A stretch of DNA of 51,037 nt from Alphaproteobacteria bacterium (GCA_002401545.1 NVTJ01000002.1:1-51037), one strand, 5' to 3'. Numbered from the stretch's first letter, positions 22,757-50,981 are shown. Notes: generated from the sequence alone by a model not told the origin. Translations and numbers: made by a program.

Positions 22757-22845
22757 GGGGGATACCTCCCCCGCACCGTCGGTGCGCCCCCTCCTCGTAT
22801 TAACTCGGGCGGACGCTTGTCCTTGCCTCACCTTAAAAGGTTCGG
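22757..22845 (-). repeat. Structured dispersed element, type A copy 1
   Basis: Minus strand CCGAA-CCTTttAAGG-TGAGG caa GGACaagcGTCC gc CCGA-GTtaatAC-GAGG ... GGGGGAggtaTCCCCC. Confidence 0.9.
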
Positions 22846-23280
22846 ATTTTCTATAAATTCTTTATGTCTATATATGCCCGCCATCCTGCCAACTGGCCAT
22901 AAAATTGACCCAATTTCAGAAACAATCGCCTCTGTGTCTTTCTGGATATGAAAGAATGATTTACCCCCCAAATAAAGGCCCACATGATAAATCAGTCTGC
23001 CAGCGCGCCATCCGATGACATCACCCGGTAACGCCTTGTCGTCCACCCTTACCCACAAGTCAGATCGACCAGATTCAAACAACGGTCCGACCTCTTGAGG
23101 GCTGGTGATATTATCTGCCGCCCCTGCGAAGGACGGTAAAATAATGTCCATCTTTTCTTTATAGACCAGACAATTCAGGCCCCAACAATCAAAGCCGCGC
23201 CGGTCACGACCATGGGCCAAAAAAGGAATATCCATATATTTCCGCACCTCAAACCTGACCCCGTTCAATAAAGTTATCAT
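22828..23280 (-). CDS. NlpC/P60 tail protein (gpK-like)
   Basis: GRDRRGFDCWGL, PGDVI, HVGLY; start taken at MITLL. Confidence 0.85.
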   Translation of the reverse strand: MITLLNGVRFEVRKYMDIPFLAHGRDRRGFDCWGLNCLVYKEKMDIILPSFAGAADNITSPQEVGPLFESGRSDLWVRVDDKALPGDVIGWRAGRLIYHVGLYLGGKSFFHIQKDTEAIVSEIGSILWPVGRMAGIYRHKEFIENPNLLR

Positions 23281-23291
23281 TACAACAAATC

Positions 23292-23359
23292 CTGAGCAAC
23301 CAGCGAAGCAAGGGCGACCGCCCGCCCGAACCAATGTGAGGAGCGGGGGAGTATCCCCC
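23292..23359 (+). repeat. Structured dispersed element, type A copy 2 (divergent, short)
   Basis: CTGA-GCaaccaGC-GAAG caa GGGCGacCGCCC gc CCGA-ACcaatGT-GAGG agc GGGGGAgtaTCCCCC. Confidence 0.8.
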
Positions 23360-23387
23360 ATTTCTTAAAAAAATAGACCCTCACAAA

Positions 23388-23864
23388 CTATCCCGGTACC
23401 ATGCCGGGCAATGTGGTGTTATCCGCTGTCGGGTAGGGATATTTCTGATCCATGAAATAATTTCCCAAAGTCCCTGTGACAAATCCGCTGTCCCACTTCA
23501 CCTGTTTCAAATCCAGAAACAACGGTCCATAATGGGGATTAACCAAATCGCCTTCCATAAAAATTGTCAAGACCAGTGCCACCTCTTCCTTGCCGTGCAG
23601 GGTCCGTAATTGATCCGTGATTTCACGGTCAACATTTGGCACTTGAATCTGCATTTTTGCCTCTTTGCCCTTTTGTTGTGTGGGCAGGGTAAAACCGAAC
23701 TGACTGGCAATATAGTTATCCCCGTTCAGAACCACATCCACCGTATTATGAACAAGCCTTATCGGGGTCGGCAAATCAGGATGGGTGGCCTCCAGAAAAG
23801 GCAAAAACGGCTTTTCAACCTGTGGCGCATAATTATTTTCCAGACCGGCATCGGTGATCGTCAT
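23388..23864 (-). CDS. Minor tail protein, DUF1833-like
   Basis: HPDLPTPIRLV, NVDREI; position between distal tail and NlpC genes. Confidence 0.75.
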   Translation of the reverse strand: MTITDAGLENNYAPQVEKPFLPFLEATHPDLPTPIRLVHNTVDVVLNGDNYIASQFGFTLPTQQKGKEAKMQIQVPNVDREITDQLRTLHGKEEVALVLTIFMEGDLVNPHYGPLFLDLKQVKWDSGFVTGTLGNYFMDQKYPYPTADNTTLPGMVPG

Positions 23865-24223
23865 AACGGCACCACCTGCAATGTCATGGTCAGCATGAAA
23901 TTTCCGGCACCCACGGCAGACAACTTTTGAGTGCCCGGTTTGATTTTATGGGTCTGGGCGACCAATAACGGGTCTTTGATGCCGGTGAAAGATTTATTAC
24001 CCGGCATTAATGTGCTGTCATAGAATGTCCTGAAGGTTTCGGCCTGCACCCAGGTCAGGCGGTGGCTGTAATTCCATTCCCCCCCGGCGACTGTGAACCG
24101 GGTCCGGTCAATGCTCGGCCCCCCGTCGGGCTGAAAGGACGCCAGGTTATCAGCAAAAGGAACCTCCGCGCCGCTAACAAACGACTTATCAGGCAGGCTG
24201 ACGGGCCAGATTTCCGGCATCAC
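23861..24223 (-). CDS. Distal tail protein (gpM/Dit-like)
   Basis: WPVSLP, GPSIDRTRFT, FRTFY; follows tape measure. Confidence 0.7.
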   Translation of the reverse strand: MMPEIWPVSLPDKSFVSGAEVPFADNLASFQPDGGPSIDRTRFTVAGGEWNYSHRLTWVQAETFRTFYDSTLMPGNKSFTGIKDPLLVAQTHKIKPGTQKLSAVGAGNFMLTMTLQVVPL

Positions 24224-27170
24224 GCACCCCCCGGCACAAGGCCAAATCGGGTTTCAAGGGCATCGGATACGTCACCGCCGTTCAATATATCTGATGCCAC
24301 GGCGCGGGGGATGATCACATCAATATCAACCCCGCCATCGGCGCGGGGTTTCTGGCGGGTCTGGGTGCCGGCGGGGGCATTGATCACAGTGATATTAACC
24401 ACCGTGCCGCCGCCCGAAGCCTTAACGCCCAACTTGCCGTCCCGGCCACGGGATAATGGCATAATGGCCTCTGGTCCGGCCTCGGCAAACAGGCCGGTGC
24501 GTCCGCCATTTAACGGGAATAAATGCGGGGTCGTAAATACACCACCGCCCGCAAAGGGAATAATATTACCCTTTGAAAATGCATTACCCATGGCCGTCGC
24601 AATCGGGGGATTGGATAAATTGGAGAAGGTTCCGCCACCACCGCTGCTGCTCCCCGAACTGAGTGATCCGGGAAGAAAGCTGGCAATACCTGAAAAATAC
24701 TGGTAAAAATACTCTGGATGGGCTTGAGCAGCAAGGCATCGGAGACCATTTTAAGCATGGTGGTACGGAACGAGCGGCCGAGCTGCTGTAAAATGCTTCC
24801 CGACGTTGCCCCGGCCGCAACCAGAGTTTCGGTGAAGGTTGCCGCCGCCGACTTTCCGGCCTGGAATCCGGCGTCCACATCCTGCCGCGCCTGTTCAATG
24901 TCACGGGTGGCCTGTTCATTGATCAGCTTTTTGGCCTGGAACATTTCCTTATCGGTGGCCACGCCGTCCTTTGCCCGTTGCCGCCAGATGGCAATCTGGG
25001 CATCCGCTTCGGCGCGAATGGCCTCGGTCACATTCCCCGTGGCCCGCAGGGCATCAATTTCCATACCGGCCAATGTGGCGGCGATCGACGCCCGTGCCTT
25101 GTCATATTGTTCCACCGTCTGGGACAAGACCTTGACATTCTGAAGTTCACCGGCCTCGGTCAAAGCCGACAGAGCCGCCGCATCACGGGCCGACAGATTG
25201 GGGAAACTCTGAACCGAAACCGGTGATATATTATCGTTGGCAGAATTTCTTTTTTCTGAAAAACTCTCAAAAATTGAAAAAGGTGCTGCGTTGTCCAATT
25301 TCGCGAACCGCCGCCGCGCTTCCAGATCTTCAAATTCAAGTAATAATTTCTCCTGCTTCTTAATCTTTTCTTCTATCCGGCCACCAATACTCAGTTCCGG
25401 AAGCGGCCCATCAAGGAATTTTAAATCTTCCCTTTTTGCTCTCAACTCTGCCAAAGTGGCGGCGGCATCTTGACGGCGCAGAGAAATGGATTTGTCTTTT
25501 TCCAGATTTAGTTCTTTCAGGGTTTTGGTTTCACGATCCAGCTCATCATTCAGTTCTTTCAAAAATTTACGATGATCTTCCGCTGCCTTTTCAGCCTCAG
25601 TTTGCCTTGTGGCCAACAACGCCAACCCACCGGCCACCAATACGGCTAATCCGGCAGGCCCACCAACCAAAGCCAATGCGCCACTTAACAGCTTCGCGGC
25701 ACCCGCTGTAGCAACCATCTGGGCGGCGGCTATAGGTGATACAGCAATCATGGCACGCAATCCGATGATTGCACCAGCATTACCAAGTAAGGCCGTTGAT
25801 AACAACCTAAAACCCGCCGCTGCAGAACGCGCGATCAACAATCCCCCCAGAACCTTAATAACAATCTCGCCATTTTCAACCAATGTCACCAATGCCTTGC
25901 TGGCAAAAACAACCGCAGGGGCAAAACTTTCACCAAGTTCTTTACTGGCCGGTATGGCCGCCTCGGTCAGGGCGCGGACTTCCTTGGTGCTTGTCTTTAA
26001 CTCATCGCTAAACCCCTCGGCAAAACCACGGCTCAGGCTGCTCATGGTATTTGACAGAATTTTACCTTCACTGCCCAAAGTGTCATATGCAGCCGCAGCC
26101 TCTTTATTCAAGGCAGTATTTTTAACAAATTCTTTGCTGGACAGGGCCAGGGCCTCTGACACATCATCCACCCGCTTTGCCATCACCGGCAGGGTCTTCA
26201 GCGTCCGAACTGAACTCAGGCCAAATTTAGCCAGCGTTTCCGATATGCGGCCGCCGGACTGGTCAACCCGGTTTAAGCCAATCAGAAATTTCTCAAAGAC
26301 CGCGACCGCGTTATCGCCAAAAGCCTGTTCCAGATCATCACCTGCGATCCCCGTCAATTCAGACAACAGCCGTAATTTTTCGCCACCCTTGGCAATGGCA
26401 TCATCCATCGCGAGGAATGAACGGGTAATGGTGGACCCGGATAATTCCGCCTGAATACCCATGGCGGCAAAGGCACCGCCCAGGCCCGCCGCCTGTGCGC
26501 TGGTAATATCATACGCCGTGCCAGCCGCCGCTATTTCACGGGCCTGATTAACAATCTCAGACTCAGTGGCGGCCATGTTATTACCTAACGCCACCACTGC
26601 ACTGGACAGATTATCAATATTATCCGTGGCTTCCCCGGTGACATTCAATATCCGGACCAGAGATTTTGACCCCTCCGCGCCGACAAGATCGGTCGCACTT
26701 TCCATTTTTGCCATGGTTTCCGTGAACAGTAAAATATTTTGTACACCCTTGACCCCCAACTGCCCCGCACTCTGGGCAATTCCCAGCAGAGATGCCGCCG
26801 CAACCGGAATCCGCCGCGACAGGGCATCCACGTCATCGCCGAGAAATTTCAATTCCGCACCGACAATATTGGTGGTTTTTCCCACGCCAACCAATCCCTG
26901 TTCAAAGGCCGCAAAGCCGCTGACCGATGAAAACAGGCTGTTGATTGAAACATAAGCCGCCGCAAGGCCGGCCCCTTGACGTAGAATCCTGTTCAATCCC
27001 CCTGCCGCCTTATTCATGATCAGCAATTCAGGCGTAGCAGCACGGGCGGAGTTCTCAATCTTCCGCATACTATTCTGTCCGGCTTTGCCGATACCCTGCA
27101 TATCCGCCTTGAACTTGCGGCCCCCTGAAATTCCAAGGCGCACACCTAAATTTTTTTCATTACGCCTCAT
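24220..27170 (-). pseudogene. Tail tape-measure protein split by a frameshift near 24693-24697
   Basis: ORF 24510-27170 is TMP-like; conserved C-terminal FAGGG...AEAGPEAIMPL.R..DGKLGV lies in another frame (24220-24591) joinable by one extra T in a T5 run. Confidence 0.8.
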
Positions 27171-27945
27171 ATTGTCGTACTGCTTTCCTGTTCTCTTTTT
27201 TTGGCAAGACCGGACAAGGCCCCCAATACCGCATCGGGTAACATTTCCGCCAAGGACGGACCGTCATATCCAAGAGCCGCCCCCATGGTGAGCGCTGATA
27301 AATAGTCAAAACCATCATGCAAAGTTGATTGTAATTTATTTAAAATATCCCAGGTCTCTTGACCCAGACGGGTTGTCAGTTCGTATTTTTGGTAGGGGCA
27401 GACTTCGCCGTCTTCGCCTTTTTCGCCTTTGCTGCACGGCGTGTCTTCGTCCCGGCACCCTTGGCAGTATTTGTCACCCCCGCCGAAGTGCCAGTCGGCG
27501 CGGGCGCAGATGCGTTTTTTTCCAGTAGCCTGTCTTCGTAGGGCTTGATGTATTTATCCTGCAGGCTCTCCGCAAGTGCATATTGATTGGTGAATATCCA
27601 GTCGATATTATCAGGGGTCGGCGGCACATCTTTTCCCGTATCCTGATCTTCAACATTCCATGAAATCAAGCCCTGTGTCGCAAAGGCGATCGTGGTCAGG
27701 GCATCGATCAAATCGCCCCGCACCGTCACATCATCCAGATTACGGAAAGAAGACAGATCATCGCCGGCTTTTTTGGCCTCATCATAAGCCTTCAGAATGG
27801 TAAAATACTGCCGCCGGGCTTCATTTGTCGTCGCCCGGAATGCCGGGGCATCAATGGGCCGCATGACGACCTCTAACCCACCAATAAGGATCAGGGCCAG
27901 ATTCGCCCGAACCTGACCCTTTTTACTCAGATCAACCTTAAACAT
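27167..27945 (-). CDS. Tail assembly chaperone GT (-1 frameshift product)
   Basis: A AAA AAC at 27520-27514; -1 frame KRICARADWHFGGGDKYCQGC... ends at TGA 27167 overlapping the TMP ATG. Confidence 0.75.
27376..27945 (-). CDS. Tail assembly chaperone G
   Basis: Between tail tube and TMP; ISWNVED..G...P.TPDNI, LLEKNA. Confidence 0.8.
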   Translation of the reverse strand: MFKVDLSKKGQVRANLALILIGGLEVVMRPIDAPAFRATTNEARRQYFTILKAYDEAKKAGDDLSSFRNLDDVTVRGDLIDALTTIAFATQGLISWNVEDQDTGKDVPPTPDNIDWIFTNQYALAESLQDKYIKPYEDRLLEKNASAPAPTGTSAGVTNTAKGAGTKTRRAAKAKKAKTAKSAPTKNTN

Positions 27946-27968
27946 ATTTTTCTTTCTTGTATTTTGAT

Positions 27969-28035
27969 GGGGGGAACTACCGTTCGCTACCCGCTTACTA
28001 CTTGAGTTCCCCCGCTCGTCACCTCGCTCCCCCTT
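27969..28035 (-). repeat. Structured dispersed element, type B copy 1
   Basis: Minus strand AAGGGGGA GCGA-GgtgaC-GAGC GGGGGAACT...AGTTCCCCC. Confidence 0.9.
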
Positions 28036-28066
28036 ATTGATGTTCTATCCGGAAAGAACTCAGTAA

Positions 28067-28155
28067 CCGAAGACCATCAGGTCTGAGGCAAGGCCAAAGG
28101 CCGCCCGAGCTAATGCGAGGAGGGGGAGCGGCCACGACGCGGGGGATATTCCCCC
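28067..28155 (+). repeat. Structured dispersed element, type A copy 3
   Basis: CCGAA-GACCatcaGGTC-TGAGG caa GGCCaaaGGCC gc CCGA-GCtaatGC-GAGG ... GGGGGAtatTCCCCC. Confidence 0.9.
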
Positions 28156-28166
28156 ACCAATAAATA

Positions 28167-29114
28167 TCAAACAGTATAATCCGCAATCTGGTTTTTAAGC
28201 TCAATAGTAAAAGATTTACCAAGCCCGCTGTCCTTTTCGCCACTAAAATCATAAGTAACATTAATACCGCCCGGACCACTCACCTCGGTAATTGGTTTGG
28301 GAAGCTTCACCTCATGCACCGTAATGATCAGGGACTGTGTGGCGTTGATCTGATATGAGAATTCAAGTTCGACCGCTGTTCTGGCATCGACAGCGGTTTT
28401 AACCGCACCGGTCTGATACCGAACCTGAAAACGGCCCTTCGCCGACTGTACCCCGTCGTCATATCCATCCACCTTGCCATCGGATCGGATAGTCAAATCC
28501 GGGTCAAGGCCATTGGCGATCGTCAATTCACCGCTTTGCACACTGGCCACTTGGGTGCCATCCATTTTAATAGCCCCCTGGAAACTGGACACCAAAAGCC
28601 GCGCCAGATCAGGCAGGGTGGCGGTAACCTGTGATGCCGCATTAGAATCCTCACCCTGCTGATGCACGACCATATTGATCTGGGGCGTCCCTTCCCTCTG
28701 GAACGGGAAGGACATACTTTCCATCTTGATGCCCAGGTGCCCGACATATTCCGGCATCAGGGGGAATCCGGTTTCGATATAACCATCCACCAAGGCTTTG
28801 CCCGATATAAAGGTATAGGTATAATCGTCCACATTATTAGTCACCACCGGATCGCCGCAAAGCAACCGCAAAAAATAATAGATATTATTCAAATCCACTG
28901 TCGTCGCAATATTACGGTTTTGGCCATCAATCGCCCCGTCCGTGGTGGGTGCCGGTTCGCGGCCATTGCCAATTTCCGGATTTTCATCCAATCCCTGGGA
29001 TGCCCCGAGGGATGTTGACACAAATGGAATTTTACGACATGTCGCCATAATTGCGCCATATGATGGCGGAAAGCCAATCCGCATTTCTGCATTTGATCCA
29101 AACGCCTTACCCAT
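28167..29114 (-). CDS. Tail tube protein
   Basis: IPFVSTSLG, N.LD....IR.DG, GPGGI.V.YD; position. Confidence 0.85.
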   Translation of the reverse strand: MGKAFGSNAEMRIGFPPSYGAIMATCRKIPFVSTSLGASQGLDENPEIGNGREPAPTTDGAIDGQNRNIATTVDLNNIYYFLRLLCGDPVVTNNVDDYTYTFISGKALVDGYIETGFPLMPEYVGHLGIKMESMSFPFQREGTPQINMVVHQQGEDSNAASQVTATLPDLARLLVSSFQGAIKMDGTQVASVQSGELTIANGLDPDLTIRSDGKVDGYDDGVQSAKGRFQVRYQTGAVKTAVDARTAVELEFSYQINATQSLIITVHEVKLPKPITEVSGPGGINVTYDFSGEKDSGLGKSFTIELKNQIADYTV

Positions 29115-29137
29115 AACTTATTCTCCTGTTTTTAAGG

Positions 29138-29578
29138 TCATCCCACAGATGACGAAGTTCCATATTCAAATTCTAAATTTATCACGGCGGCCTTGATATC
29201 CGCGCCACCTTCGACCGGTTCATCCAGCAAATCCAGATTGCGCGGCAGCACAAACTGGACCAGACCACCAAGCGTTTCCAGATTATCCTCCGGAAAGGCC
29301 GCCGCCAAGGTGACCAGCAAATCATCAAGACACTGGTCCCGCACCGCGCTATCCGGCTCCTGGATAAATATCTGCAGGTCCGCAGACCAGGTAATGATGA
29401 AATAGGGCGGCGACATTTCGGACAGCCGGCCCGCCTCTTCCCCGTCATACAGAACCACATCACCAGCAGCCGCTACCCGCGAACGAGGGTTACGGTTCCG
29501 CGCCACATCTTGATCGGGAAAAACCAGTCGCAGCTTTGCCAGTATGGCTTCCAGTGCCTGTTCTCTTATTGTTGCCAT
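29138..29578 (-). CDS. Tail terminator/completion protein
   Basis: TIREQAL, LYDGE, TLGGL, GADIKAA; upstream of tail tube. Confidence 0.7.
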   Translation of the reverse strand: MATIREQALEAILAKLRLVFPDQDVARNRNPRSRVAAAGDVVLYDGEEAGRLSEMSPPYFIITWSADLQIFIQEPDSAVRDQCLDDLLVTLAAAFPEDNLETLGGLVQFVLPRNLDLLDEPVEGGADIKAAVINLEFEYGTSSSVG

Positions 29579-29579
29579 T

Positions 29580-30281
29580 TTAGCTTTTATTCCATTCATC
29601 GATAATTGCCGCAGGCAAGCGCCCCTGCGCGATCTGCGCCCGAACCCGAAAGGTTATCTTCCTTCGCAATTTTGTTTTTTTGACCAGAATGAACATCACC
29701 ACTGATGACTGGTTTTTCAGGCTCGACCGTGCCCCAAGACGTTTACTGGCCTTCAACGCCCGTATGCGGCGGAAACCTGTGGTGCCGCGCCCGTCTTTGC
29801 CCTTACTGCCGGACCCGCGAAAGCCGTCCGCAATCAGCAGTAATTTGCCGCGCTTGGTTCTGAACACCCGCAATTTAAAGCCGAACCGTTCTTCAAATGT
29901 TTTTGGCGACAGGGTCTGTTTCCGCCCGCCCTTCGCAGGACGCTTGCCGCCGCGCAGAGCTTTGGCGGCGGGGGTCGGGATGGCCAGATACTGGCCATTC
30001 TTGGCCGTGATCGTCGACCCTTCTTCAAACCCGGTCATAATGGCGGCGGCTCTGGTCCAGACCTCACCAGCCGCATTGAGTTTTTGGTTCTTATAAAACT
30101 TATGCCGCCACGAATTGGCCAGCCGGTTACCAAGCCCGGCCTGGCGAACTTGCCTGCGCATTTGCAATTTCAACGCAATCACCGTCGCCCGGGTGGCCCG
30201 GACCACAGCCCCCTCCGCCTTTTTCACTTCGCGGGCCATATATTTATTCAGGTCACCCTTAAGGGCGGCGATTATACGCAT
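29580..30281 (-). CDS. Basic tail-completion protein (DUF6441-like)
   Basis: AGLGNRLANSWR, GSTITAKNGQYLAIPT, VVMFILV. Confidence 0.7.
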   Translation of the reverse strand: MRIIAALKGDLNKYMAREVKKAEGAVVRATRATVIALKLQMRRQVRQAGLGNRLANSWRHKFYKNQKLNAAGEVWTRAAAIMTGFEEGSTITAKNGQYLAIPTPAAKALRGGKRPAKGGRKQTLSPKTFEERFGFKLRVFRTKRGKLLLIADGFRGSGSKGKDGRGTTGFRRIRALKASKRLGARSSLKNQSSVVMFILVKKTKLRRKITFRVRAQIAQGRLPAAIIDEWNKS

Positions 30282-30284
30282 TTT

Positions 30285-31211: not shown

Positions 31212-31726
31212 TTTTCATTCCTTTCAGTTATGGAACCCCCGGCCAACGGGCCGACAAAATCCGACAACGGCGAACCAGACGCTTTCGCATCTACCCGTGT
31301 CCGGGGGAAACTGAGTATATTCTGTGTGTTGTATGATCCCTTGTCGTGGGACTTGTTCTTTTTTATTACCGACATTTTTAATATTTCGTCATATTGCGCC
31401 GGCACATGGTCCGGGCTGTCCAGCCGGGTCATATCCGTCCGCCATACCTCATGTGTCGCACTGGTATATTCCACATCATCCAGTTCGACCCCAATTTTCA
31501 GGGCCAGAAAGTGGCGCATATCACCGGACAGGCGGTGCGATACCGTAAAGGCAAAATCAAACGCCAGCTTTTCCAGAAACACCGGACTGCGGTCACCGCT
31601 GAATATCAGCCTTTCGGTGATTTCATTCAGCGCCATCATCTGATCTTCCAGTTCCGTGATTATATCAAGCACCCGCTGAACTGCGGGGCTGTCATGATTT
31701 AAATCATCAAAGGGTTCTCGCATCAC
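31208..31726 (-). CDS. Hypothetical protein of the c4/antirepressor operon
   Basis: Stop/start overlaps with both neighbours. Confidence 0.6.
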   Translation of the reverse strand: MMREPFDDLNHDSPAVQRVLDIITELEDQMMALNEITERLIFSGDRSPVFLEKLAFDFAFTVSHRLSGDMRHFLALKIGVELDDVEYTSATHEVWRTDMTRLDSPDHVPAQYDEILKMSVIKKNKSHDKGSYNTQNILSFPRTRVDAKASGSPLSDFVGPLAGGSITERNEK

Positions 31727-31977: not shown

Positions 31978-32025
31978 GCGCTTGGTCCTTTGTTCGGTTA
32001 ACCCAGACCAAGGTTCGAATCTTGG

Positions 32026-36979: not shown

Positions 36980-36980
36980 T

Positions 36981-42997: not shown

Positions 42998-43044
42998 AAT
43001 TTGCTTTCTAGAATAGGTTTATTTGTTTGGTCTTTTTGTCTGAT

Positions 43045-43134
43045 GGGGGATACTCCCCCGCGTCGTGGCCGCTCCCCCTCCTCGTATTAACTCGGGCGGA
43101 CACTTGTCCTTGCCTCAGCCTTTTATGGCTTCGG
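43045..43134 (-). repeat. Structured dispersed element, type A copy 4
   Basis: Minus strand CCGAA-GCCataaaaGGC-TGAGG caa GGACaagtGTCC gc CCGA-GTtaatAC-GAGG ... GGGGGAgtaTCCCCC. Confidence 0.9.
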
Positions 43135-43329
43135 GGGAGCTGCGCACCTTTCGCCATAAAATTCTGTTCCAAGGTTTTCCAGAAACTGGCGTTCAAAATC
43201 AGTCAGGCGGTCATCATCCATATGGATAGCCAGAACACCTACTCCATGCCATCCGTCAGCCTTGACCTGTTCTTCGCTGCGGCGAGTGGTGGCAAGCCCC
43301 TGGGTGGAGGTTCGGATCGATATCATCAC
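43123..43329 (-). CDS. Small hypothetical phage protein
   Basis: Start overlaps methylase stop; its own stop lies in repeat A4. Confidence 0.6.
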   Translation of the reverse strand: MMISIRTSTQGLATTRRSEEQVKADGWHGVGVLAIHMDDDRLTDFERQFLENLGTEFYGERCAAPPKP

Positions 43330-44090: not shown

Positions 44091-44120
44091 AAACCCGACA
44101 CCCGTAACTTAAATAATAAT

Positions 44121-44171
44121 ACATAAATGTGTGAAAAAATCCTTGACATATCACACATTTATGTGTAATAT
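44121..44171 (+). promoter_or_regulatory. hicAB promoter and operator
   Basis: TTGACA(44143)-N17-TAATAT; inverted repeat ACATAAATGTGTGA/TCACACATTTATGT. Confidence 0.7.
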
Positions 44172-44199
44172 TATTCACATAGAGAGAGGAAAATACCAA

Positions 44200-44412
44200 A
44201 TGAACGGCAATGAGTTTTTGAAGAAAGTTAAAAAGATTGGACGCAAAAACGGCGTTGAAATCATTATCAATAGCAAGCAAGGCAAAGGAAGCCACGTCAT
44301 CCTTCATTATGGCACCCGCTTTACAACCCTGAAAGACAGGAGAAAGGAAATCGGCGAAGGACTTTTGAAAGCCATGTGCCAACATCTGGGAATTAAAAAG
44401 ACGGACCTCTAA
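44200..44412 (+). CDS. hicA: HicA toxin
   Basis: GKGSH, EIGEGLLKAMCQHLGI; RBS GAGGA. Confidence 0.88.
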   Translation: MNGNEFLKKVKKIGRKNGVEIIINSKQGKGSHVILHYGTRFTTLKDRRKEIGEGLLKAMCQHLGIKKTDL

Positions 44413-44493
44413 AGGTCCGCAAGCCTCTCTTAAGAATATAAAAACAAGGAAGTAAAAAGAAACTGAACTAAAAATCGCATAAAAGGAAGAAGC

Positions 44494-44919
44494 ATGACAC
44501 ATATATTCTCCGCAGAGATCAAAGCGGACGGAAAGCAATTTTTGATCACATTCCCCGATGTACCCGAAGCCATCACCGGTGCGGATACTATGGAAGAAAC
44601 CAAGCAAGAGGCCCTCGACGCCCTTGTGACCGCTCTGGGCGAATATGCCCGAAGCGGGAAGGCCATGCCCAAAGCATCCCCCACAAAACAGGGGCAGGTC
44701 GGGATCCGCATTCCCGCCCTGATGATCGCCAAACTGGATCTGATGGCTGCTATGAAAAAGCAGGATATATCCGGCGCGCAACTTGCCCGCCGTCTTAAAA
44801 CCACAGATACGACGGTCCGCCGTATTCTCGACTTTAATCATCGGTCTCACATTGATCAGGTGGAAGACGCCCTGTCCGCCATCGGCCATGTGTTGGAAAT
44901 CAGCACCCGCGCGGCTTAA
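44494..44919 (+). CDS. hicB: HicB antitoxin
   Basis: ITFPDVPEAITGADT.EE..A.DAL plus C-terminal HTH. Confidence 0.9.
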   Translation: MTHIFSAEIKADGKQFLITFPDVPEAITGADTMEETKQEALDALVTALGEYARSGKAMPKASPTKQGQVGIRIPALMIAKLDLMAAMKKQDISGAQLARRLKTTDTTVRRILDFNHRSHIDQVEDALSAIGHVLEISTRAA

Positions 44920-44948
44920 ATCATTATCAGGGGTGATGTCGGTTGATG

Positions 44949-45335
44949 TCATCCCTTCCCCCCATAGGGCCGGTGAAGATGTTTGCTCAGCGCCGCCGCC
45001 ACTTCATTGTTCAGATTGAATAAGGCGGGGCCATCAAGAGGAAGCCGAAAAGACTTGCCATCCTCAAAACCCACCTGAAGGCAGGTTTCAATCCCCGGCG
45101 CACTGATTACCGCCACAGTTTTGATTTTCTTATTTTTGGATAAATGGAATTTCCAATTATCAAGGGCTTGATCCAATGCGTCACTTATACGCGCTCTTTC
45201 GGACAGCAGTTGCTTCAATGCCGGGCTGAAGGTTCCACCCTTAAACAACCCACCCTTGGCATCGCTCCCTCGCAATAGTTTCCGGGGCGTCAATCCGGAT
45301 ATTTCCTGCCATCGGCTTTGCAACCACCTAATCAT
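44949..45335 (-). CDS. Hypothetical early protein
   Basis: Start MIRWLQ overlaps upstream stop. Confidence 0.5.
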   Translation of the reverse strand: MIRWLQSRWQEISGLTPRKLLRGSDAKGGLFKGGTFSPALKQLLSERARISDALDQALDNWKFHLSKNKKIKTVAVISAPGIETCLQVGFEDGKSFRLPLDGPALFNLNNEVAAALSKHLHRPYGGKG

Positions 45336-45726
45336 TTTTCCCCTCTCCGATATTTTCGAGAATTTTGGACCCTGCCCCTGAAATGCAATATCCGGCTCCG
45401 GCAAAGTCACCATCATCCGTCATCAATCCCTTGTAAAAATCGGCAAGACCGTTATGGGAAAGCCACCGAACAACAGAACTAACCCGTTGTTTTGACATAC
45501 CTGTTGCCGCCATGATTGGTGCAAAAGAAACGCACCGTTCCCCATTCTCAAGAGTATTGTTGGAAAGGAATTTAAGTATTTTAATACGATCAAGGCCTTT
45601 ATTTTTTGTTTTGATGGGGGAACTATCGTTCGCACCCCTGTCTTTTGAACTTTCCGCCTTGGCGAAGCCAAGGCTTTGGCAACTACTTGAGTTCCCCCGC
45701 TCGTCGCCTCGCTCCCCCTTGATCAT
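45328..45726 (-). CDS. Winged-helix protein with repeat-derived N-terminal insert
   Basis: FAPIMAATGMSKQRVSSVVRWL..GL; ATGA overlap with cII; roughly residues 3-37 encoded by repeat B2. Confidence 0.6.
   Translation of the reverse strand: MIKGERGDERGNSSSCQSLGFAKAESSKDRGANDSSPIKTKNKGLDRIKILKFLSNNTLENGERCVSFAPIMAATGMSKQRVSSVVRWLSHNGLADFYKGLMTDDGDFAGAGYCISGAGSKILENIGEGKND
45616..45720 (-). repeat. Structured dispersed element, type B copy 2 (extra internal hairpin)
   Basis: Same ends as B1/B3; internal GCCTTGGC-ttc-GCCAAGGC. Confidence 0.9.
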
Positions 45727-46193
45727 GTAGCACCCCCCGCCCGCGCTTTGAGCGCGTCATACAGCCCGACAACCACCCGCAGCACGTCTTCCACTTCAGG
45801 CAGGGCCGCCGCCGCTTCTTGAGGATCAATGTCCCCGTCATCGGCCAGACCCTCGCCCATTTTGGCAAAAACATCGGCGACTTCTTTACCGAAATCGGCC
45901 AGATGCTGTCCAAATACACCGCCTTCACTGGGCGTGATTTGTAGCAAAACACAGCCCTGCATTGTGGCCAGGGCGCGGGTCACCGGCATATCCTGGCTAA
46001 AATCCTCAAGGTCCGCAACCACATCAACCGGGGCAAAATGACCCGGCATGTTGATATTGCCGTAATTGGACATGCTGACCTTATTGACGCGGGTAATCTC
46101 CGCCGCCCCTTCTGTACCGCCGCACTGCCCGGTCAGGGTCCGCGTCGCCGCCATCAGCCGCTGATAATCAATTTTCCGAAGTTGTCTGCTCAT
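45723..46193 (-). CDS. Phage CII-like regulator
   Basis: CGG.E.AA..TRV, P.DVV.DLE, LADDG.I...E; downstream of cro. Confidence 0.65.
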   Translation of the reverse strand: MSRQLRKIDYQRLMAATRTLTGQCGGTEGAAEITRVNKVSMSNYGNINMPGHFAPVDVVADLEDFSQDMPVTRALATMQGCVLLQITPSEGGVFGQHLADFGKEVADVFAKMGEGLADDGDIDPQEAAAALPEVEDVLRVVVGLYDALKARAGGAT

Positions 46194-46477
46194 GTGAGAA
46201 TTCCCCCCGACTGCTCAAATGACAAAAACCGCGCTCTGCGCGATAGTTCGGACATAGCCCTGGACCAGAAAAGACTCCGATCCGAAGCCATTAAGGGCTG
46301 AGGCAAGGCCAAGCGGCCGCCCGAATTAATATGAGGAAAGCCTAAGCGCATAGCGCCGGCGATTGAGACAATATGAAAATAAATAAGATCAAACAGACCC
46401 TGAAAAAACTGAATACCCCGTCTGCCCGCAGGCAATTGGGGGAGTTGTGCAGAATGGAGCGACTGGGGAAGCTTCAT
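46190..46477 (-). CDS. Hypothetical ORF between cro and cII containing repeat A5 in antisense
   Basis: ATGA overlaps at both ends. Confidence 0.4.
   Translation of the reverse strand: MKLPQSLHSAQLPQLPAGRRGIQFFQGLFDLIYFHIVSIAGAMRLGFPHINSGGRLALPQPLMASDRSLFWSRAMSELSRRARFLSFEQSGGILT
46282..46336 (+). repeat. Structured dispersed element, type A copy 5 (5' three hairpins, different 3' module)
   Basis: CCGAA-GCCattaagGGC-TGAGG caa GGCCaagcGGCC gc CCGA-ATtaatAT-GAGG. Confidence 0.85.
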
Positions 46478-46701
46478 TCTGCCGCCCCCACACGCACCGA
46501 TTCCTCAAGAATGGCTTCCGCGTACAGATCATCAAAGGTCAAAGCATGATCAGACCACACCACTATGCGCGCGGCCAGCTTAGGCCCAAGTTCGCGCTCA
46601 CCAGCAAGGATTTTATAGAGAAAACTCTGGCTGATTTCCAATTCATCCGCCACCGTTTTAATCGGAATATTTTTGCTTTTTATGTAATTTTGAAATGTCA
46701 T
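46474..46701 (-). CDS. Cro-like repressor
   Basis: VADELEISQSFLYKILAGER HTH; divergent from cI; start at MTFQ assumed. Confidence 0.8.
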   Translation of the reverse strand: MTFQNYIKSKNIPIKTVADELEISQSFLYKILAGERELGPKLAARIVVWSDHALTFDDLYAEAILEESVRVGAAE

Positions 46702-46711
46702 AAGTACACTA

Positions 46712-46786
46712 TTACCCATATTGTACAATAACAGTCAAGCCAAAATTACCCATAATAGTCATTTTTGTTTTACCCAGATAGGGTAA
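46712..46786. promoter_or_regulatory. OR-like operator region: three 17-bp sites
   Basis: TTACCC-N5-half-site at 46712, 46746, 46770; the third is the perfect TTACCC-agata-GGGTAA. Confidence 0.75.
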
Positions 46787-46795
46787 TATGCCGCC

Positions 46796-47365
46796 ATGAA
46801 AAACAGAATTAAAGAACTGAGAAACAAACAAGGGCTGTCCCAGCAACAGCTCGCAGACCTTCTTAACTGCGGGAAATCAACTGTTGTAAAGCTGGAACGC
46901 GGTGAGCGAAGATTAAGCGATGTCTGGGCAGAACGTATGGCAAAAATATTTAATTGCCGCCTTGTAGAAATTTTTGAAGAAATTCTCCCTACCCGTGAAA
47001 TTCCTGTCATCTCATGGGTCCAGGCAGGCGCATTCACCGAAGAAACTCTTCTGAGTGATTTAAGCGACGCAGAGAAAATAATCAGCAATTACAACAAAAC
47101 AACCACCTTTGCCCTGAAGGTGGTTGGGTCAAGTATGAACCGGGTTGCACCGGAAGGCTCTATTATTATTGTGAATTATGATGATCAGGAATTGATTGAC
47201 GGAAAATCTTATATTATTCGTAATAGTGAAGGGGCGAGTTTTAAAAGGTATCGCAGCAACCCCATCCGCTTTGAACCCCAAAGCACCGACGATCACGACA
47301 CTATTTTTCCGCACGATGGCTTGCATATTGTGGGCCGGGTTGTTCAGGTTTTGACAGATTTATAG
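46796..47365 (+). CDS. CI-like repressor (HTH + S24 peptidase)
   Basis: N-terminal XRE HTH; VQAG cleavage site, GSSM catalytic Ser, FKRY Lys. Confidence 0.93.
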   Translation: MKNRIKELRNKQGLSQQQLADLLNCGKSTVVKLERGERRLSDVWAERMAKIFNCRLVEIFEEILPTREIPVISWVQAGAFTEETLLSDLSDAEKIISNYNKTTTFALKVVGSSMNRVAPEGSIIIVNYDDQELIDGKSYIIRNSEGASFKRYRSNPIRFEPQSTDDHDTIFPHDGLHIVGRVVQVLTDL

Positions 47366-47373
47366 ACAGAATA

Positions 47374-48459
47374 TTAATCCTTAGCAGTAACATTCATAAA
47401 CTCAATTTCAGTAATGATTTCAATCCCCAAAGTACGTGCCTCAAAAACATCTTGGTCACCACCCTTACCATGAACTAGAAATTTTAGACCATCATGAACA
47501 AAGTCAAAAAAGTGAAAACCCTTATCTTTACATCTTTTCTTAAACTCAAAGTTATCAATGAAAATCAAGTTACCAGCTACCGCACATGATATATCCCGCC
47601 ATGCACCACTAGATAAATCGTCAAGAAATTCCTGATGATTTACCTCTTTAACATCCGCCACAACATCCTTTGCCTCTAAAACCCCATCGACTTCTTCCTG
47701 TGCAAGAATTCCGTCTGCATAAATCAAATCACTTAGATATTTCAATAGTTTCGGTTGAATAATTTTATTCAGAAAATAGTTTGCTTTATATAGATATTCC
47801 AACGATTCAACAAAATAGCTGTGGTCGGAATAAGTGATTGCTGCATGATTCAGTATTGCCAACAAATCATAGTCATATTCATCCTGCGGGCAAATATCCT
47901 TAATAAATTCACCAATGACTAATAATTCCTTTTCATGAAAATGACCATCACAACGAGCCATATATACCAATACACAAATAGCTTTCCCGCAATGGGTAGT
48001 TATATATCTTTGATGTTTTCCAACCGGTTTTACAGAATGTATTTCCTCCGGCAACATGCCGTCCGCGACCAAGGTTCTTATGAATTCCAAACCTGTCCCA
48101 AATACTTCGCCTGTTCGTAAGTCAACAACCTCTTGCATCCGATCTGATCGAAAATTCCTTGGACCTTCTGCCTCGTGACAATATGCTGTGAACATATAGA
48201 CATCACTACCAACCTTTTGAATATTTTTACAGGTTATCCGGCGACTACTTCTGTCACCGTATTCGTCTTGATACTTGATACCAACGAGTATTCCCGGAAG
48301 ACTTTTTGAAATGCGGGCCCCAACACCATCCACACCATTTTCCGGTTTTTCATCAGGATCATATTGAATTGCAAATGTTGCAGGTTGTGGAATTCTAAAC
48401 CGTTTTCTATTCACAGATTTTTTTACGATATCAAGTGCAGTTTGAATATCAATATTCAT
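47374..48459 (-). CDS. WYL-TerB-BRCT-like multidomain protein
   Basis: Y.D..G..S.R.I..AYCH....RNFRSDRM (WYL); MARCDG.FHEKE / ADGILAQEE (TerB); LVHG....ARTLGIEIITE.EF (BRCT-like). Confidence 0.7.
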   Translation of the reverse strand: MNIDIQTALDIVKKSVNRKRFRIPQPATFAIQYDPDEKPENGVDGVGARISKSLPGILVGIKYQDEYGDRSSRRITCKNIQKVGSDVYMFTAYCHEAEGPRNFRSDRMQEVVDLRTGEVFGTGLEFIRTLVADGMLPEEIHSVKPVGKHQRYITTHCGKAICVLVYMARCDGHFHEKELLVIGEFIKDICPQDEYDYDLLAILNHAAITYSDHSYFVESLEYLYKANYFLNKIIQPKLLKYLSDLIYADGILAQEEVDGVLEAKDVVADVKEVNHQEFLDDLSSGAWRDISCAVAGNLIFIDNFEFKKRCKDKGFHFFDFVHDGLKFLVHGKGGDQDVFEARTLGIEIITEIEFMNVTAKD

Positions 48460-48522
48460 AACGACCTCATCCCTTTTATTTACGCCAAATTTTAATGCTA
48501 CCCCAATTGAAAAAATATTTCT

Positions 48523-48571
48523 TTACCCTTATTGTCCATTTTTTATTTGACTAATTGTACAATATGGGTAA
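48523..48571. promoter_or_regulatory. OL-like operators and early promoter
   Basis: TTACCCTTATTGTCCAT at 48523; TTGTACAATATGGGTAA at 48555 is the exact reverse complement of the 46712 site; TTGACT at 48547. Confidence 0.75.
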
Positions 48572-48607
48572 TTAATAGAGCAATTCAAAACCAAACGGGA
48601 AAAAATC

Positions 48608-49333
48608 ATGATCAACACCCACGGCATTCCGGCGAACCAGCTTCGATCTTTCATTGAGAGCGTAGAGCGACTGGAAGAAGAAAAAAAGTGCATCCAGAAC
48701 GACATCAAAGATGTGAAGTCAGAAGCAAAATCCATGGGTTATGATGTTAAAACCATCAACCAGATTATCAAGGACCGCAGGATCACAGACGATAGACTGG
48801 CCGAACAGGAAGCCTTGCTCGACATCTACCGCGCCGCTCTGGGTATGTTGCATGATACACCGCTTGGTGAAGCCGCCCGCCGCCAGTTAAGTGGTAAATC
48901 CCCGGCAAAAGACCCGACTGACACCACCGAAAAAAAGGAAGACATCAAAGTTTTCGGCGACAAGGACATCACCGTGGACAAGGCGCAGGAAATGGGGTTT
49001 GAAGCCGCCAAAGACGGTGCCAAGGTCATTGACAACCCCTTCATCGCCGGTGACCCCCGCCGCGGCGCATGGGATCAGGGATGGTGCAAGGCCGCCGGAC
49101 ATGACGGGATGGAAATCCCCGACACATGGCGTCGCGCCACGAAAAAACCCGGTGACGGCGATGGTAAGGCCACCAAGGGAACGCTACCCCGGACGAAACC
49201 ACACCCGCCAAGGGGGAGCGAGGCGACGAGCGGGGGAACTCAAGTAGTAAGCGAGGAGCGAACGATAGTTCCCCCACGAAACAAAAGAAGAAAGGCGGTA
49301 AAAAATGACGGCAAAATTTCAACTGCCCCGTAA
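48608..49333 (+). CDS. GapR (DUF2312) domain protein with RMF-like C-terminal motif
   Basis: QLRSFIESVERLEEEK..DIKDV..EAK..GYD; G.EAA.DG....NPF......AW..GW. Confidence 0.8.
   Translation: MINTHGIPANQLRSFIESVERLEEEKKCIQNDIKDVKSEAKSMGYDVKTINQIIKDRRITDDRLAEQEALLDIYRAALGMLHDTPLGEAARRQLSGKSPAKDPTDTTEKKEDIKVFGDKDITVDKAQEMGFEAAKDGAKVIDNPFIAGDPRRGAWDQGWCKAAGHDGMEIPDTWRRATKKPGDGDGKATKGTLPRTKPHPPRGSEATSGGTQVVSEERTIVPPRNKRRKAVKNDGKISTAP
49210..49275 (+). repeat. Structured dispersed element, type B copy 3
   Basis: AAGGGGGA GCGA-GgcgaC-GAGC GGGGGAACT...AGTTCCCCC. Confidence 0.9.
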
Positions 49334-50189
49334 CCTGCAATCATTTTGTGAGGTTCGCCACCCCGCCGATGCCGTGGTCCCTATCCTGATCAGGCCGGTC
49401 CGGGATGCCGTCCATGAATGGATGACGGAAATTAACATGCGCACCGCACTTGAATCAGTGAATATTGAACCCCGCAACACGGCCCTGCTCTATGGTCCAC
49501 CTGGATGCGGCAAGACCACCCTTGCCCACCATTTCGCTGCCCGTCTCGGCATGTCATTGATTTCGGTAAAGATGGACAGCATCGTCAGTAGCTATGTCGG
49601 CAAAACAGAAAACCATATTGGTGAGCTTTTTAGCACAATCAAAAACGCTGAGGTTCCTGCGGTCTTATTCCTTGACGAATTTGACGCCATCGCAACGTCC
49701 CGCACATCAGATGGCAGTAGTGCCGGAAAAGGAAAAGACGCTGTTGTCAATGCCCTTCTGGTGCGGATTGAGGAACATAAAGGCATCTGCATCGCCGCCA
49801 CCAACCGGGGCGATGCCATCGATCCGGCTTTATGGCGGCGGTTTGGGCTTCATCTGGATATTGGATTGCCGGGACAGGAAGAACGCTTTGCCATCCTGAA
49901 TAAATATCTCTTTCCCTATGCACTCCCCGAAAAAGACATTGATACCCTGGCGGAAGAAATGGCCGGTGCTTCCCCTGCTCTGATTAAACAGGTGATGGAA
50001 GGCATCAAACGATCTTTAATTTTAAACCCCTGTCTTAATCGGCCCATTGATGCGAACACAATCCTCGGGCAGGTTCTGGCGTCCGTCAAACCCCACGCGG
50101 CATATGCCACCCCGCCCTTATGGGAGTCGTTAACGGATATCCTGCCTGCCATTTCATGGCCCCCACAACCCTGCCCCAAAGCCGCCTGA
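49305..50189 (+). CDS. AAA+ ATPase
   Basis: GPPGCGKT, FLDEFD, AATN....DPALWRRF. Confidence 0.92.
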   Translation: MTAKFQLPRNLQSFCEVRHPADAVVPILIRPVRDAVHEWMTEINMRTALESVNIEPRNTALLYGPPGCGKTTLAHHFAARLGMSLISVKMDSIVSSYVGKTENHIGELFSTIKNAEVPAVLFLDEFDAIATSRTSDGSSAGKGKDAVVNALLVRIEEHKGICIAATNRGDAIDPALWRRFGLHLDIGLPGQEERFAILNKYLFPYALPEKDIDTLAEEMAGASPALIKQVMEGIKRSLILNPCLNRPIDANTILGQVLASVKPHAAYATPPLWESLTDILPAISWPPQPCPKAA

Positions 50190-50215
50190 AACCATCCCAA
50201 CGAGAGGAAAACAAA

Positions 50216-50899
50216 ATGCCGGAAAAAACATCACTCATCGAAAAAGCCGTTGCTATGGACAGCACCATCGGACAGCGATATCATCCGCCACAACAATCAA
50301 AAAAATCCCCGACAACTCCCACATTTTCCGGTCGTGACCATTATCTTCTGACACCGCTCCCCCGTGACATCAACTGGCGTGACATTGCCGCACATCTGGC
50401 AAAAATCAACCGTTATACTGGGGCCACACCTCTGCCCTATTCTGTGGCCCAGCACTGCGTGATCATGTGTGACCTGTCATTACCGGAACTCAAACCCTAT
50501 GCCCTGCTTCATGATGCTCATGAGGCCTATATCAATGATCTGTCCGCGCCCTTTAAAGCGGCGCTCCAATTGATATGTCCCCAGGCCATCAAGGCCATAA
50601 AACACATCGAATACCTGCAGGACACGGCCATTTATGCCGCCGCGAACCTGACCTATCCTGTGCCGGATTATATCAAACGGCGGATTAAAGAACTGGACCT
50701 TGCCATGGCCAGCGCGGAAATAGAACAATTATTATGCCGCCCGGCCCGCGACAACGTCCCCGCCGCCAAAACCATCATCCGCGTGAAATCATGGGGTGAT
50801 GCCGAAGATCAGTTCATGGCCCGCCTTGAACAATGGGTATTCCCCCACATTCGCATCAATGACCACAACAAGACACCACCCGAAGCCCCAAAAGGCTGA
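50216..50899 (+). CDS. HD-domain phosphohydrolase (YfbR/YfdR-like)
   Basis: DIAAHLAKINRY, YSVAQH, ALLHDAHEAY..D; start at MPEKT after GAGGA. Confidence 0.85.
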   Translation: MPEKTSLIEKAVAMDSTIGQRYHPPQQSKKSPTTPTFSGRDHYLLTPLPRDINWRDIAAHLAKINRYTGATPLPYSVAQHCVIMCDLSLPELKPYALLHDAHEAYINDLSAPFKAALQLICPQAIKAIKHIEYLQDTAIYAAANLTYPVPDYIKRRIKELDLAMASAEIEQLLCRPARDNVPAAKTIIRVKSWGDAEDQFMARLEQWVFPHIRINDHNKTPPEAPKG

Positions 50900-50981
50900 G
50901 GCAAGGCCAAGCGGCCGCCCGAGTTAATACGAGGAGGGGGAGCGTGCCCAGAGACTTAGCGACGCGGGGGAGTTATCCCCC
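50880..50981 (+). repeat. Structured dispersed element, type A copy 6
   Basis: CCGAA-GCCccaaaaGGC-TGAGG caa GGCCaagcGGCC gc CCGA-GTtaatAC-GAGG ... GGGGGAgttaTCCCCC. Confidence 0.9.

Follow-up and report, generated by a model that had tools for sequence, protein, structure and literature searches.

The DNA analysed here, referred to below as the window, is a 51,037-nt contig (C38; NVTJ01000002.1:1-51037) from the metagenome-assembled genome (MAG) GCA_002401545.1 of an Emcibacter-like marine alphaproteobacterium. A prophage on this contig carries nine copies of a modular multi-hairpin repeat, which belong to an undescribed intergenic repeat family of the host and its relatives. Most probably (with a probability of about 0.7), this family is selfish and non-autonomous, similar to repetitive extragenic palindromes (REPs), bacterial interspersed mosaic elements (BIMEs) and miniature inverted-repeat transposable elements (MITEs), and would have colonised the prophage. 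The family is chromosome-wide, genus-wide and intergenic, and its hairpin structure is maintained through compensatory change.

The host genome (G000) comprises 2.68 Mb in 176 contigs, with a GC content of 49% and a completeness of 74%. An initial annotation of the window had proposed nine copies of two types, A and B, all of which were recovered, each at its place and on its strand, by a covariance model (CM), by nhmmer and by a repeat finder, which reports them as direct (D1-D7) and inverted (I1-I9) families. The CM, designated R1, was built from 17 complete type A copies, all from G000, that form alignment A1 with an explicit five-helix structure, and it was used for the scans of the host genome and of sister species. 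A larger alignment, A2, holds 110 distinct copies from ~20 genomes. Type B copies were located by nhmmer and form alignment A3. Because repeats break assemblies, all copy numbers given for MAGs are lower bounds.

Structural conservation

In the 17-copy alignment, 96% of the cells are paired, eight pairs have changed at both positions, and the observed values are not attained in any of 500 column shuffles; when the partners are slid by 1-3 columns, pairing falls to 42-53%. The signal is considerably stronger in the 110-copy alignment, with 96.4% of cells paired and compensatory changes at 22 of the 25 pairs; on each of the five measures, all 500 shuffles fall short of the observed value. The respective slid-partner controls show 33-51% pairing. 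Thus, the claim of the initial annotation that structure is kept while sequence covaries is borne out.

The four G.A dinucleotides of the fold are retained in 95-107 of the 110 copies (86-97%), and the adjoining stem pairs vary freely. In the same alignment G.T wobbles are more frequent than A.C mismatches (41 vs 18). Since the G.A mismatches are conserved and G.T outnumbers A.C, the fold is specific to one strand, as had been proposed. Folding energies, computed with either RNA or DNA parameters, do not separate the sense from the antisense strand, and predicted folding of single-stranded DNA (ssDNA) is just marginally better than that of shuffled sequences.

Distribution in the host genome and in related species

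R1 finds 39 type A matches on ~22 contigs of G000, and nhmmer places ~10 further type B copies on host contigs C151, C87, C7, C165, C127, C120, C147, and C56. At least 43 units, below called arms, form ~28 intergenic clusters in this genome, nine of which are head-to-head composites, and at least 34 arms lie outside the window. According to Pfam annotation of 30 genes beside the copies outside the window, the neighbours include hisS/prfA, a class I Glu/Gln-tRNA synthetase (GluRS-like), holC/pepA, an M1 peptidase (pepN) next to a MatE pump, sdhB, ffh/rpsP, rpsD, aroA/dcd, proC, ubiE/fpg, transporters, and channels. Since these neighbours are housekeeping genes, it is improbable that the copies on host contigs represent mis-binned phage DNA. 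The 11.4-kb host flank of the prophage (positions 1-11400 of the window) has no copy detectable by the CM, just as the initial annotation reported; the absence does not extend to the rest of the host genome.

Type A is found in 15 of 18 sister species, with 1-41 R1 matches each, and type B in 11 of 18, and weaker matches occur in other genera and orders. Three species that are 93-97% complete have zero type A copies according to R1. The first pattern scan of a genome collection used a core that was too loose and returned mostly single chance matches in GC-rich genomes, with at least 14 CM-confirmed matches in 10 records; among the matches listed, members are present in records of Emcibacter, Kordiimonadaceae, Sneathiella, Sphingomonadales, and Alteriqipengyuania. 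The tail tube protein of the prophage, in turn, is found in none of the 18 sister species. As the family is present in 15 of these species and the prophage in none, the element is independent of this phage.

The initial annotation had set a phage system against colonisation by a described REP family present in hundreds of copies across the host chromosome. The second case applies in substance: copies are indeed chromosome-wide, but they number in the dozens and match no described family. In the sole closed genome of the genus (G013:C1), three copies at 530095, 2850239, and 4044184 have identical model scores and may be part of a larger repeated unit.

Modular architecture

An arm is a unit of ~100-130 nt that draws on a set of modules: an optional half-palindrome H0, hairpins H1, H2, and H3, a GGGGGAG box, hairpins H4 and H5, and a 12-nt A-rich tail. 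In type A, H1 (CC-GA-stem-loop-stem-GA-GG) is followed by H2 (a GC stem of 4-5 bp), H3 (CC-GA-GY-TAAT-RC-GA-GG), the GGGGGAG box, the variable hairpin H4, H5 (GGGGGA-loop-TCCCCC, a GC-rich hairpin of 6 bp), and the tail, which has the consensus ATCAAYAAAAAA and no U-tract. The stem variants of H1, H2, and H3 listed in the initial annotation all read as described in the sequences. Likewise, GGGGGA..TCCCCC with an A-rich tail ends eight of the nine copies in the window, the exception being arm A5 with its different 3' module.

Type B does not stand apart as an element of its own, being built from the module set of type A. It is a 5'-truncated form with an enlarged H5, and the C-tail form is characterised by alternative 3' modules; types A, B and C-tail are one modular family. 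The 5' half of type B consists of GGGGGAG, GC-GA-G-(GNRA or GGA)-C-GA-GC, and GGGGGA. This unit, itself a tandem-G.A mini-hairpin, also serves as the H4 module of many type A copies in G006. A 9-bp outer stem GGGGGAACT/AGTTCCCCC surrounds an almost invariant loop CTCAAGTAGT..GCGAACGATAG, which holds another T-GA-GC..GC-GA-A unit, and H4 of type B covaries between species (GTGTCC/GGACAC, GACCGC/GCGGTC, and GTATCC/GGATAC). The 3' module of A5, AAGCCTAAGCGC..GCGCCGGCGATTGAGRC, recurs upstream of ffh and MatE and near rpsD (C35, C87:3977, and C100), as well as at prfA in G003 and G015. The recurring building block throughout, used by no fewer than four module types, is a short hairpin with a closing tandem G.A/A.G mismatch in Y-GA-R context. 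All H5 motifs detected in G000 sit in arms.

Arms are found single, in tandem, or head-to-head around H0 with their tails outward. Head-to-head composites combine types A and B on C87, C127, C165, C120, C7, and in the window (27946-28170), two type A arms on C20 and C145, and a C-tail with a type A arm at hisS-prfA. Tandem arrays and arms without H1 are present as well (C27 and C127). Positional conservation stops ~22 nt 5' of H1 and 12 nt 3' of H5. The two ends of a single arm differ (..CTCAGTAA-CCGA at the 5' end and CCCCC-ATCAAYAAAAAA at the 3' end), and composites have inverted termini.

Some copies have an H2 variant with an insertion of ~20 nt, which forms the extended hairpin GGCCCAT-TATTAGATT-ATGGGGCC (L010:5915-5975 on C101, and the ffh-downstream copies of G015, G017, and G014). 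This variant is common to copies of different genomes and shows that modules acquire nested hairpins, as is also seen in arm B2 of the window. At the centre of the C120 composite between ubiE and fpg (L272:1800-1870), a 22-nt unit CGGATAAGGTTGTAAT is duplicated. This composite fills nearly the whole divergent region, and the promoters of ubiE and fpg would therefore lie inside it. A consensus scan of the composite found no promoter, and TTGTAA-N17-TGTAAT, picked out by eye, is too weak to count as evidence.

Turnover at orthologous sites

Between hisS and prfA, the two genes abut, overlap or are separated by a few nucleotides at most in 12 species. G004 and G013 have unrelated short spacers at this site, G015 and G003 one C-tail arm, G018 a decayed remnant, and G000 and G007 an inverted pair. 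Upstream of ffh, the site is empty in G007, where the ATG follows 12 nt past the conserved ffh leader. The same site is occupied by a C-tail arm in G000 and G015, by a full type A arm in G011, G014, and G017, and by another structured repeat in six species. The downstream side of ffh likewise differs between species, G013 and G010 having decayed remnants. Filled, empty, and decayed orthologous sites of this kind are what is expected of repeats that insert at permissive intergenic positions and then decay.

Two further observations were made at ffh. In G000, the Rfam "ffh sRNA" leader motif RF01793 lies directly 5' of the gene (L008:3907-3959 on contig C87; 45.5 bits with a gathering threshold of 35), and the C-tail arm has inserted just past this leader, ahead of the ffh start codon. 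The other structured repeat, CAGCCTTGAGCNCGTTTCATGGTGTT..AACACCGGAAACAAAAC, is unrelated, often present in 2-4 tandem copies and followed by an A-rich tail. It is found at the ffh flanks of G016, G005, G008, G009, G010, and G013 (loci L175, L177, L178, L182, L184, and L186), in species with few or no type A arms, and is absent from G000 by pattern search.

In the source samples, contigs break at the copies and the summed depth there rises 10-25-fold; no clean empty allele was seen among these contigs. Modules are present within 200 nt of 8 of the 352 contig ends compared with 0.8% of random windows, which corresponds to ~3-fold enrichment.

Orientation towards genes

For the orientation count, genes were called again with a codon-usage score and neighbouring arms were merged into one cluster. 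Among the 21 cluster ends beside gene starts, 19 are tails and 2 are heads (binomial P = 2e-4), the latter belonging to arm A2 of the window and to a type B arm on C151. Cluster ends beside gene stops show no orientation bias. In the divergent regions on C87 and on C120 (ubiE/fpg), the two arms of the composite each read in the direction of the gene that they precede. Many other arms lie tail-to-stop between convergent genes, with no downstream gene (C20, C145, C165, and C7). A selection filter on insertions is the simplest account of the tail-to-start rule, and a positive role of the tail in translation start is conceivable as well.

Because no U-tract follows the tail on either strand, the element is not a terminator. 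The initial annotation had reached the same conclusion for the sense copies, in which the tract after H5 is A-rich, not U-rich.

Copies in the window

The six type A copies of the window have CM E-values from 1e-30 to 4e-12. The arms and the one central palindrome are as follows.

22742..22848, minus strand: type A arm A1 (CM R1, 109.3 bits, E = 1.2e-28)
23289..23374, plus strand: type A arm A2 (CM R1, 52.5 bits, E = 4e-12)
27946..28043, minus strand: type B arm B1 (nhmmer, E = 4e-26; alignment A3)
28042..28059, no strand assigned: central palindrome H0, GTTCTATCCGGAAAGAAC, common to the divergent arms B1 and A3 (head-flank conservation)
28064..28170, plus strand: type A arm A3 (CM R1, 116.4 bits, E = 1e-30)
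43030..43137, minus strand: type A arm A4 (CM R1, 110.6 bits)
45600..45728, minus strand: type B arm B2 (nhmmer, E = 4e-23; alignment A3)
46279..46387, plus strand: type A arm A5 (CM R1, 61.5 bits)
49204..49294, plus strand: type B arm B3 (nhmmer, E = 2e-23)
50877..50996, plus strand: type A arm A6 (CM R1, 108.8 bits)

A1 has its modules in the order H1-H2-H3-GGGGGCG-H4-H5-A tail and lies between the NlpC/P60 tail gene and the gene of tail protein J, whose start is 14 nt beyond the end of the A tail. H1 of this arm contains the stop codon of the NlpC/P60 gene. A2 is divergent and shortened, with CT-GA-GC..GC-GA-AG as H1 and without H4; it is antisense to the adjoining tail genes and turns its head towards a gene start.

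All nine proposed copies are present, yet not all of them are separate, as B1 and A3 are the left and right arms of one composite (27946-28170). B1 contains GGGGGAG, the mini-hairpin GC-GA-G-GTGA-C-GA-GC, the outer stem around the conserved loop, and the A tail, which abuts the start of a 189-aa gene at 27945. The tail of A3 overlaps the stop of the tail tube gene (PF18906), and the H0 centre of this composite recurs in those on C87, C127, and C165.

In the early region, A4 is in sense with dnaB (DnaB by Pfam match), its tail lying 32 nt upstream of the start. B2 has an extra hairpin of ~50 nt nested within its large loop. A5 comprises H1-H2-H3 followed by the alternative C-tail 3' module AAGCCTAAGCGC..GCGCCGGCGATTGAGAC, which replaces GGGGGAG-H4-H5. 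B3, also in sense, has its tail 10 nt upstream of the AAA ATPase start, and A6, which has a longer H4, ends just 5' of an ATG at 51002. The arms appear to extend or terminate adjoining reading frames: at 48608-49333 (plus strand), a 241-aa frame runs on through B3, and its GapR-like domain covers residues 9-79 only. The contig ends 41 nt past A6 (50997-51037), and the next-numbered contig starts with a partial arm (G000:C39:7-68).

The prophage and other phages

According to Pfam, the prophage is siphovirus-like. Its tail region encodes a tail tube, a tape measure, DUF1833, NlpC/P60, and protein J, and its early region DnaB, a replication initiator, an N6 methylase, cI-like and CII-like regulators, a GapR-like protein, a WYL protein, and an AAA ATPase. 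The same annotation shows no HUH, Y1 or other transposase in the prophage, in agreement with the earlier statement that no cognate enzyme is evident in the window.

With 9 arms in 8 clusters over 39.6 kb vs 0.41 clusters expected by length, the prophage is enriched ~19-fold (P about 1.5e-8). The prophage copies do not form a clade by overall identity, which is 0.77 within the prophage, 0.756 between prophage and host copies, and 0.79 within the host set. However, a 5-nt H2 loop AAGYG is found in 4 of 5 prophage copies and 0 of 16 host copies in G000, and it is present in sister species such as G001 and G003. The three prophage B copies also share a core variant unlike that of host B copies. 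These two variants give a hint, short of proof, that the phage may have picked up its copies, or that these diversified, while it was in a different host, and that it may carry them between hosts.

Three pattern scans of a viral collection yielded 33 candidate viral contigs, none of which has a type A copy. One of the candidates, IMGVR_UViG_3300027980_000057 from IMG/VR, carries a type B-like arm immediately behind the stop of a gene, and three tandem repeats of ~37 nt, AAAACCGCGCTCAGGTAGCCGAYAGGCGATAGCGCAT, lie just 3' of this arm (L271:10950-11060). Related phages were found neither in IMG/VR by tube protein nor in INPHARED by DNA. Two prophages of G024 with 40% tube-protein identity are the sole relatives found, and they have no copy of the element.

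A probable selfish element filtered by host selection

The reading that we favour accounts for these observations as follows. The element would be copied in trans via a single-stranded intermediate, with the conserved one-strand fold serving as the recognition target of the mobilising enzyme. Host selection would then filter the insertions, so that the A-rich tail and not the GC-rich head comes to lie next to downstream starts and no terminator is placed inside operons; insertions with the head against a ribosome binding site, or those that terminate an operon, would be lost. Such filtering would result in the sense bias and in the position 20-50 nt before start codons. The prophage would have been colonised at ~19 times the genome-wide density and may carry its own sub-lineage of copies, with the element itself not depending on the phage. 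Most arms share a transcript with the adjoining genes, and effects on the stability or processing of the mRNA therefore seem likely as a by-product.

Of the two possibilities raised by the initial annotation, a non-autonomous REP/REPIN-like element mobilised in trans (REPIN being an inverted doublet of REPs) agrees with the dozens of copies beside housekeeping genes, the 15 positive sister species, the filled and empty sites, and the inverted and tandem clustering of arms. The other, a cis signal acting throughout the phage in processing, antitermination or the control of translation, is not supported, as the element also occurs outside the phage and does not depend on it.

Nevertheless, several observations weigh against this reading. 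Covariation with conserved non-canonical pairs, the strong sense bias of arms in co-directional gene pairs (14 sense, 2 antisense), and the copies kept at both ffh flanks in ~8 species would fit a host-beneficial RNA element equally well, and the 19-fold enrichment in the prophage is not explained by a selfish-element model alone. Single arms show neither target-site duplications nor terminal inverted repeats, and exact insertion junctions are undefinable among the compared species because these are too diverged. Finally, no mobilising enzyme was identified. The only gene in G000 similar to REP-associated tyrosine transposases (RAYTs) is a 255-aa open reading frame at C100:10764-11531, the other Y1_Tnp match being a fragment at a contig end. 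This gene scores 73.9 bits for NF047646, below the cutoff of 80, and its flanks are free of the element, the nearest copy (the C-tail arm near rpsD) being 2.7 kb off, past an IS30 transposase gene. Across 19 genomes of the genus, several of them incomplete, the presence of Y1_Tnp is not associated with copy number. There is no Y1_Tnp match in G018, G006, and G001, the sister genomes richest in the repeat (41, 30, and 21 R1 matches), or in G011 (9 R1 matches; 95% complete), and, vice versa, G008 and G012 have three Y1_Tnp matches each and zero repeat copies.

Thus, mobilisation by a RAYT is not supported, since the gene is below the cutoff and unflanked and shows no co-occurrence with the repeat. 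The linked HUH/RAYT transposase that the initial annotation had suggested looking for is not seen. Because several of the compared genomes are incomplete, a RAYT link is made less likely rather than refuted. On C100, an IS30-family transposase gene, the RAYT-like gene, and lexA stand side by side (L009:9677-12318). A copy in G013 located ~3 kb from an IS200-like TnpA was also considered; an IS481/IS3-like transposase lies between the two, and the copy is not part of the TnpA element.

Alternative explanations

The same evidence can be read as a functional cis-acting RNA module of host and phage that acts in intercistronic processing, stability or translation, with mobility being secondary. The arm would be transcribed as part of operons and 5' UTRs. 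A protein would bind to its tandem-G.A hairpins, or these would guide an RNase, and H5 together with the A-rich tail would prepare the downstream ribosome binding site or shield it. One-strand-specific mismatches with covarying stems, the sense bias (14 vs 2) and the tails facing starts (19 vs 2) all agree with such a role, as do the design without a U-tract after H5, which avoids termination, the arms on C87 and C120 that are each in sense with their downstream gene, and the copies retained at both ffh flanks. However, the neighbouring genes have no common function, many arms lie tail-to-stop between convergent genes, and both strands fold about equally well. In addition, orthologous sites may be empty, decayed or occupied by an unrelated repeat, and three nearly complete species have no type A at all. 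Taken together, a primarily functional module appears unlikely.

A bolder version of this idea, which we hold to be rather improbable, is a portable, transcribed RNA cassette with 3-4 copies of one protein- or RNase-recognition unit, a short hairpin with closing tandem sheared G.A pairs (C-GA-G/C-GA-G). Placed between cistrons or in 5' UTRs, it would act genus-wide in processing, stability or translation start, and a temperate phage would have adopted it for its own operons and would spread it between species. If that were true, the private H2-loop variant and the 19-fold density would reflect use by the phage and not passive colonisation.

As for a DNA-level element, a nucleoid-associated or topology protein could use the repeat as a binding or structural site, or the repeat could be extruded in replication as a single-strand initiation signal. 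Its mosaic modules resemble those of BIMEs, its hairpins are GC-rich, the composites have dyad symmetry, and the prophage encodes a GapR-like DNA-binding protein. Moreover, DNA as well as RNA forms stable tandem sheared G.A pairs when these stand in Y-GA-R context, and E. coli REP/BIME sites are bound by gyrase and IHF. In contrast, no protein is linked to the element, the orientation bias towards start codons is unexpected for a purely double-stranded DNA site, and the predicted ssDNA fold is just marginally above shuffled sequence, which makes this explanation very improbable.

A phage-specific cis signal, i.e., an RNase processing, antitermination, packaging or replication signal of this prophage, would agree with nine arms in 40 kb, with 7 of 9 arms being in sense with local phage genes, with five that end 20-50 nt before a start codon, and with the H2-loop variant of the prophage copies. 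Given at least 34 arms by housekeeping genes, 15 of the 18 prophage-free sister species being positive, and no type A copy in either the viral candidates or the two G024 prophages, it is extremely unlikely. Intrinsic terminators or attenuators have hardly any chance of being correct: H5 is a GC-rich hairpin and two upstream GGGGG per CCCCC permit alternative pairings, but an A-rich tract follows H5, the T-run of the opposite strand precedes the hairpin, the majority of copies sit within co-directional gene pairs immediately ahead of a start codon, and a terminator scan of C120 gave one antisense site, at an extra H5 copy with a T-run there, which is no more than in shuffled sequence.

Comparison with known systems

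No Rfam family matches the window at gathering thresholds, and in the 7.4-kb ffh contig, which has four arms, the sole match at E <= 1 is the separate leader RF01793. A search of the published literature (REP and mosaic elements of Alphaproteobacteria, Emcibacter, tandem G.A together with REP) found no description of the element, its diagnostic strings occur in none of the papers searched, and a recent survey of REPs does not mention the clade.

Among the known systems, REP/BIME of Enterobacteria are alike in being GC-rich imperfect intergenic hairpins with dozens to hundreds of copies and mosaic combinations, in forming alternating or tandem clusters, in being co-transcribed with operons, and in varying between related genomes. 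However, a REP is one ~35-nt hairpin with a conserved 5' GTAG, palindromic units of 20-40 nt being the rule, whereas the arms described here comprise 4-5 hairpins in 100-130 nt, along with tandem G.A mismatches and an A-rich tail. GTAG is not seen ahead of the hairpins of type A, and in type B it lies inside the conserved loop only. The REPIN-RAYT system (Bertels and Rainey 2011, PMC3116915) shares with the present family the inverted hairpin doublets (here C20, C145, and 27946-28170), the presumed single-strand mobilisation in trans, and the multi-copy, extragenic occurrence. It differs in that the RAYT-like gene here is below the cutoff and unflanked, many arms are single or tandem, and paired arms are of mixed type (A/B, C/A).

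BOX of pneumococcus, ERIC/IRU, Correia/NEMIS, MIRU, and RIME are modular intergenic repeats of ~100-150 bp with predicted folds, which are often oriented to transcription. MIRUs are located within operons, always facing the same way, and extend over stop and start codons, and RIMEs are mosaic repeats of Alphaproteobacteria. No sequence relationship to BOX, ERIC/IRU, Correia/NEMIS, MIRU or RIME was found, and single arms differ in showing no terminal inverted repeats or target duplication. To our knowledge, the recurring Y-GA-R tandem-mismatch hairpin does not occur in BOX, ERIC, Correia, MIRU or RIME. The RIME of rhizobia is mentioned in PMC2873474.

T7 RNase III sites and lambdoid nut sites are also repeated sense hairpins between phage genes; however, they are owned by the phage, and the present element is mainly chromosomal and occurs in species without the phage. 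Integron attC sites have a strand-specific single-strand fold, covarying stems, conserved mismatched or unpaired bases, and an orientation to genes. In contrast to attC, there is here no integrase, cassette array or R-box consensus, and the copies are dispersed next to housekeeping genes. Because a short GTAG-hairpin unit, a flanked RAYT gene, and co-occurrence with a transposase are all absent, the element is not classified as REP/RAYT. It is a new family within the class of REP, BIME, REPIN, and modular repeats, with the Y-GA-R tandem-mismatch hairpin block as the distinctive trait.

Implications

The attractive interpretation of the nine copies as phage-regulatory signals is thus corrected to that of a chromosome-wide repeat in a little-studied marine genus. 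For the annotation of MAGs, elements of this kind are a concern, as they break assemblies and extend or truncate predicted reading frames. At the same time, the family is a well-resolved modular repeat, in which a one-strand fold with tandem G.A mismatches is upheld by compensatory change in many species. It could also serve to study how REP-like elements without a RAYT are mobilised, and whether temperate phages concentrate and carry them.

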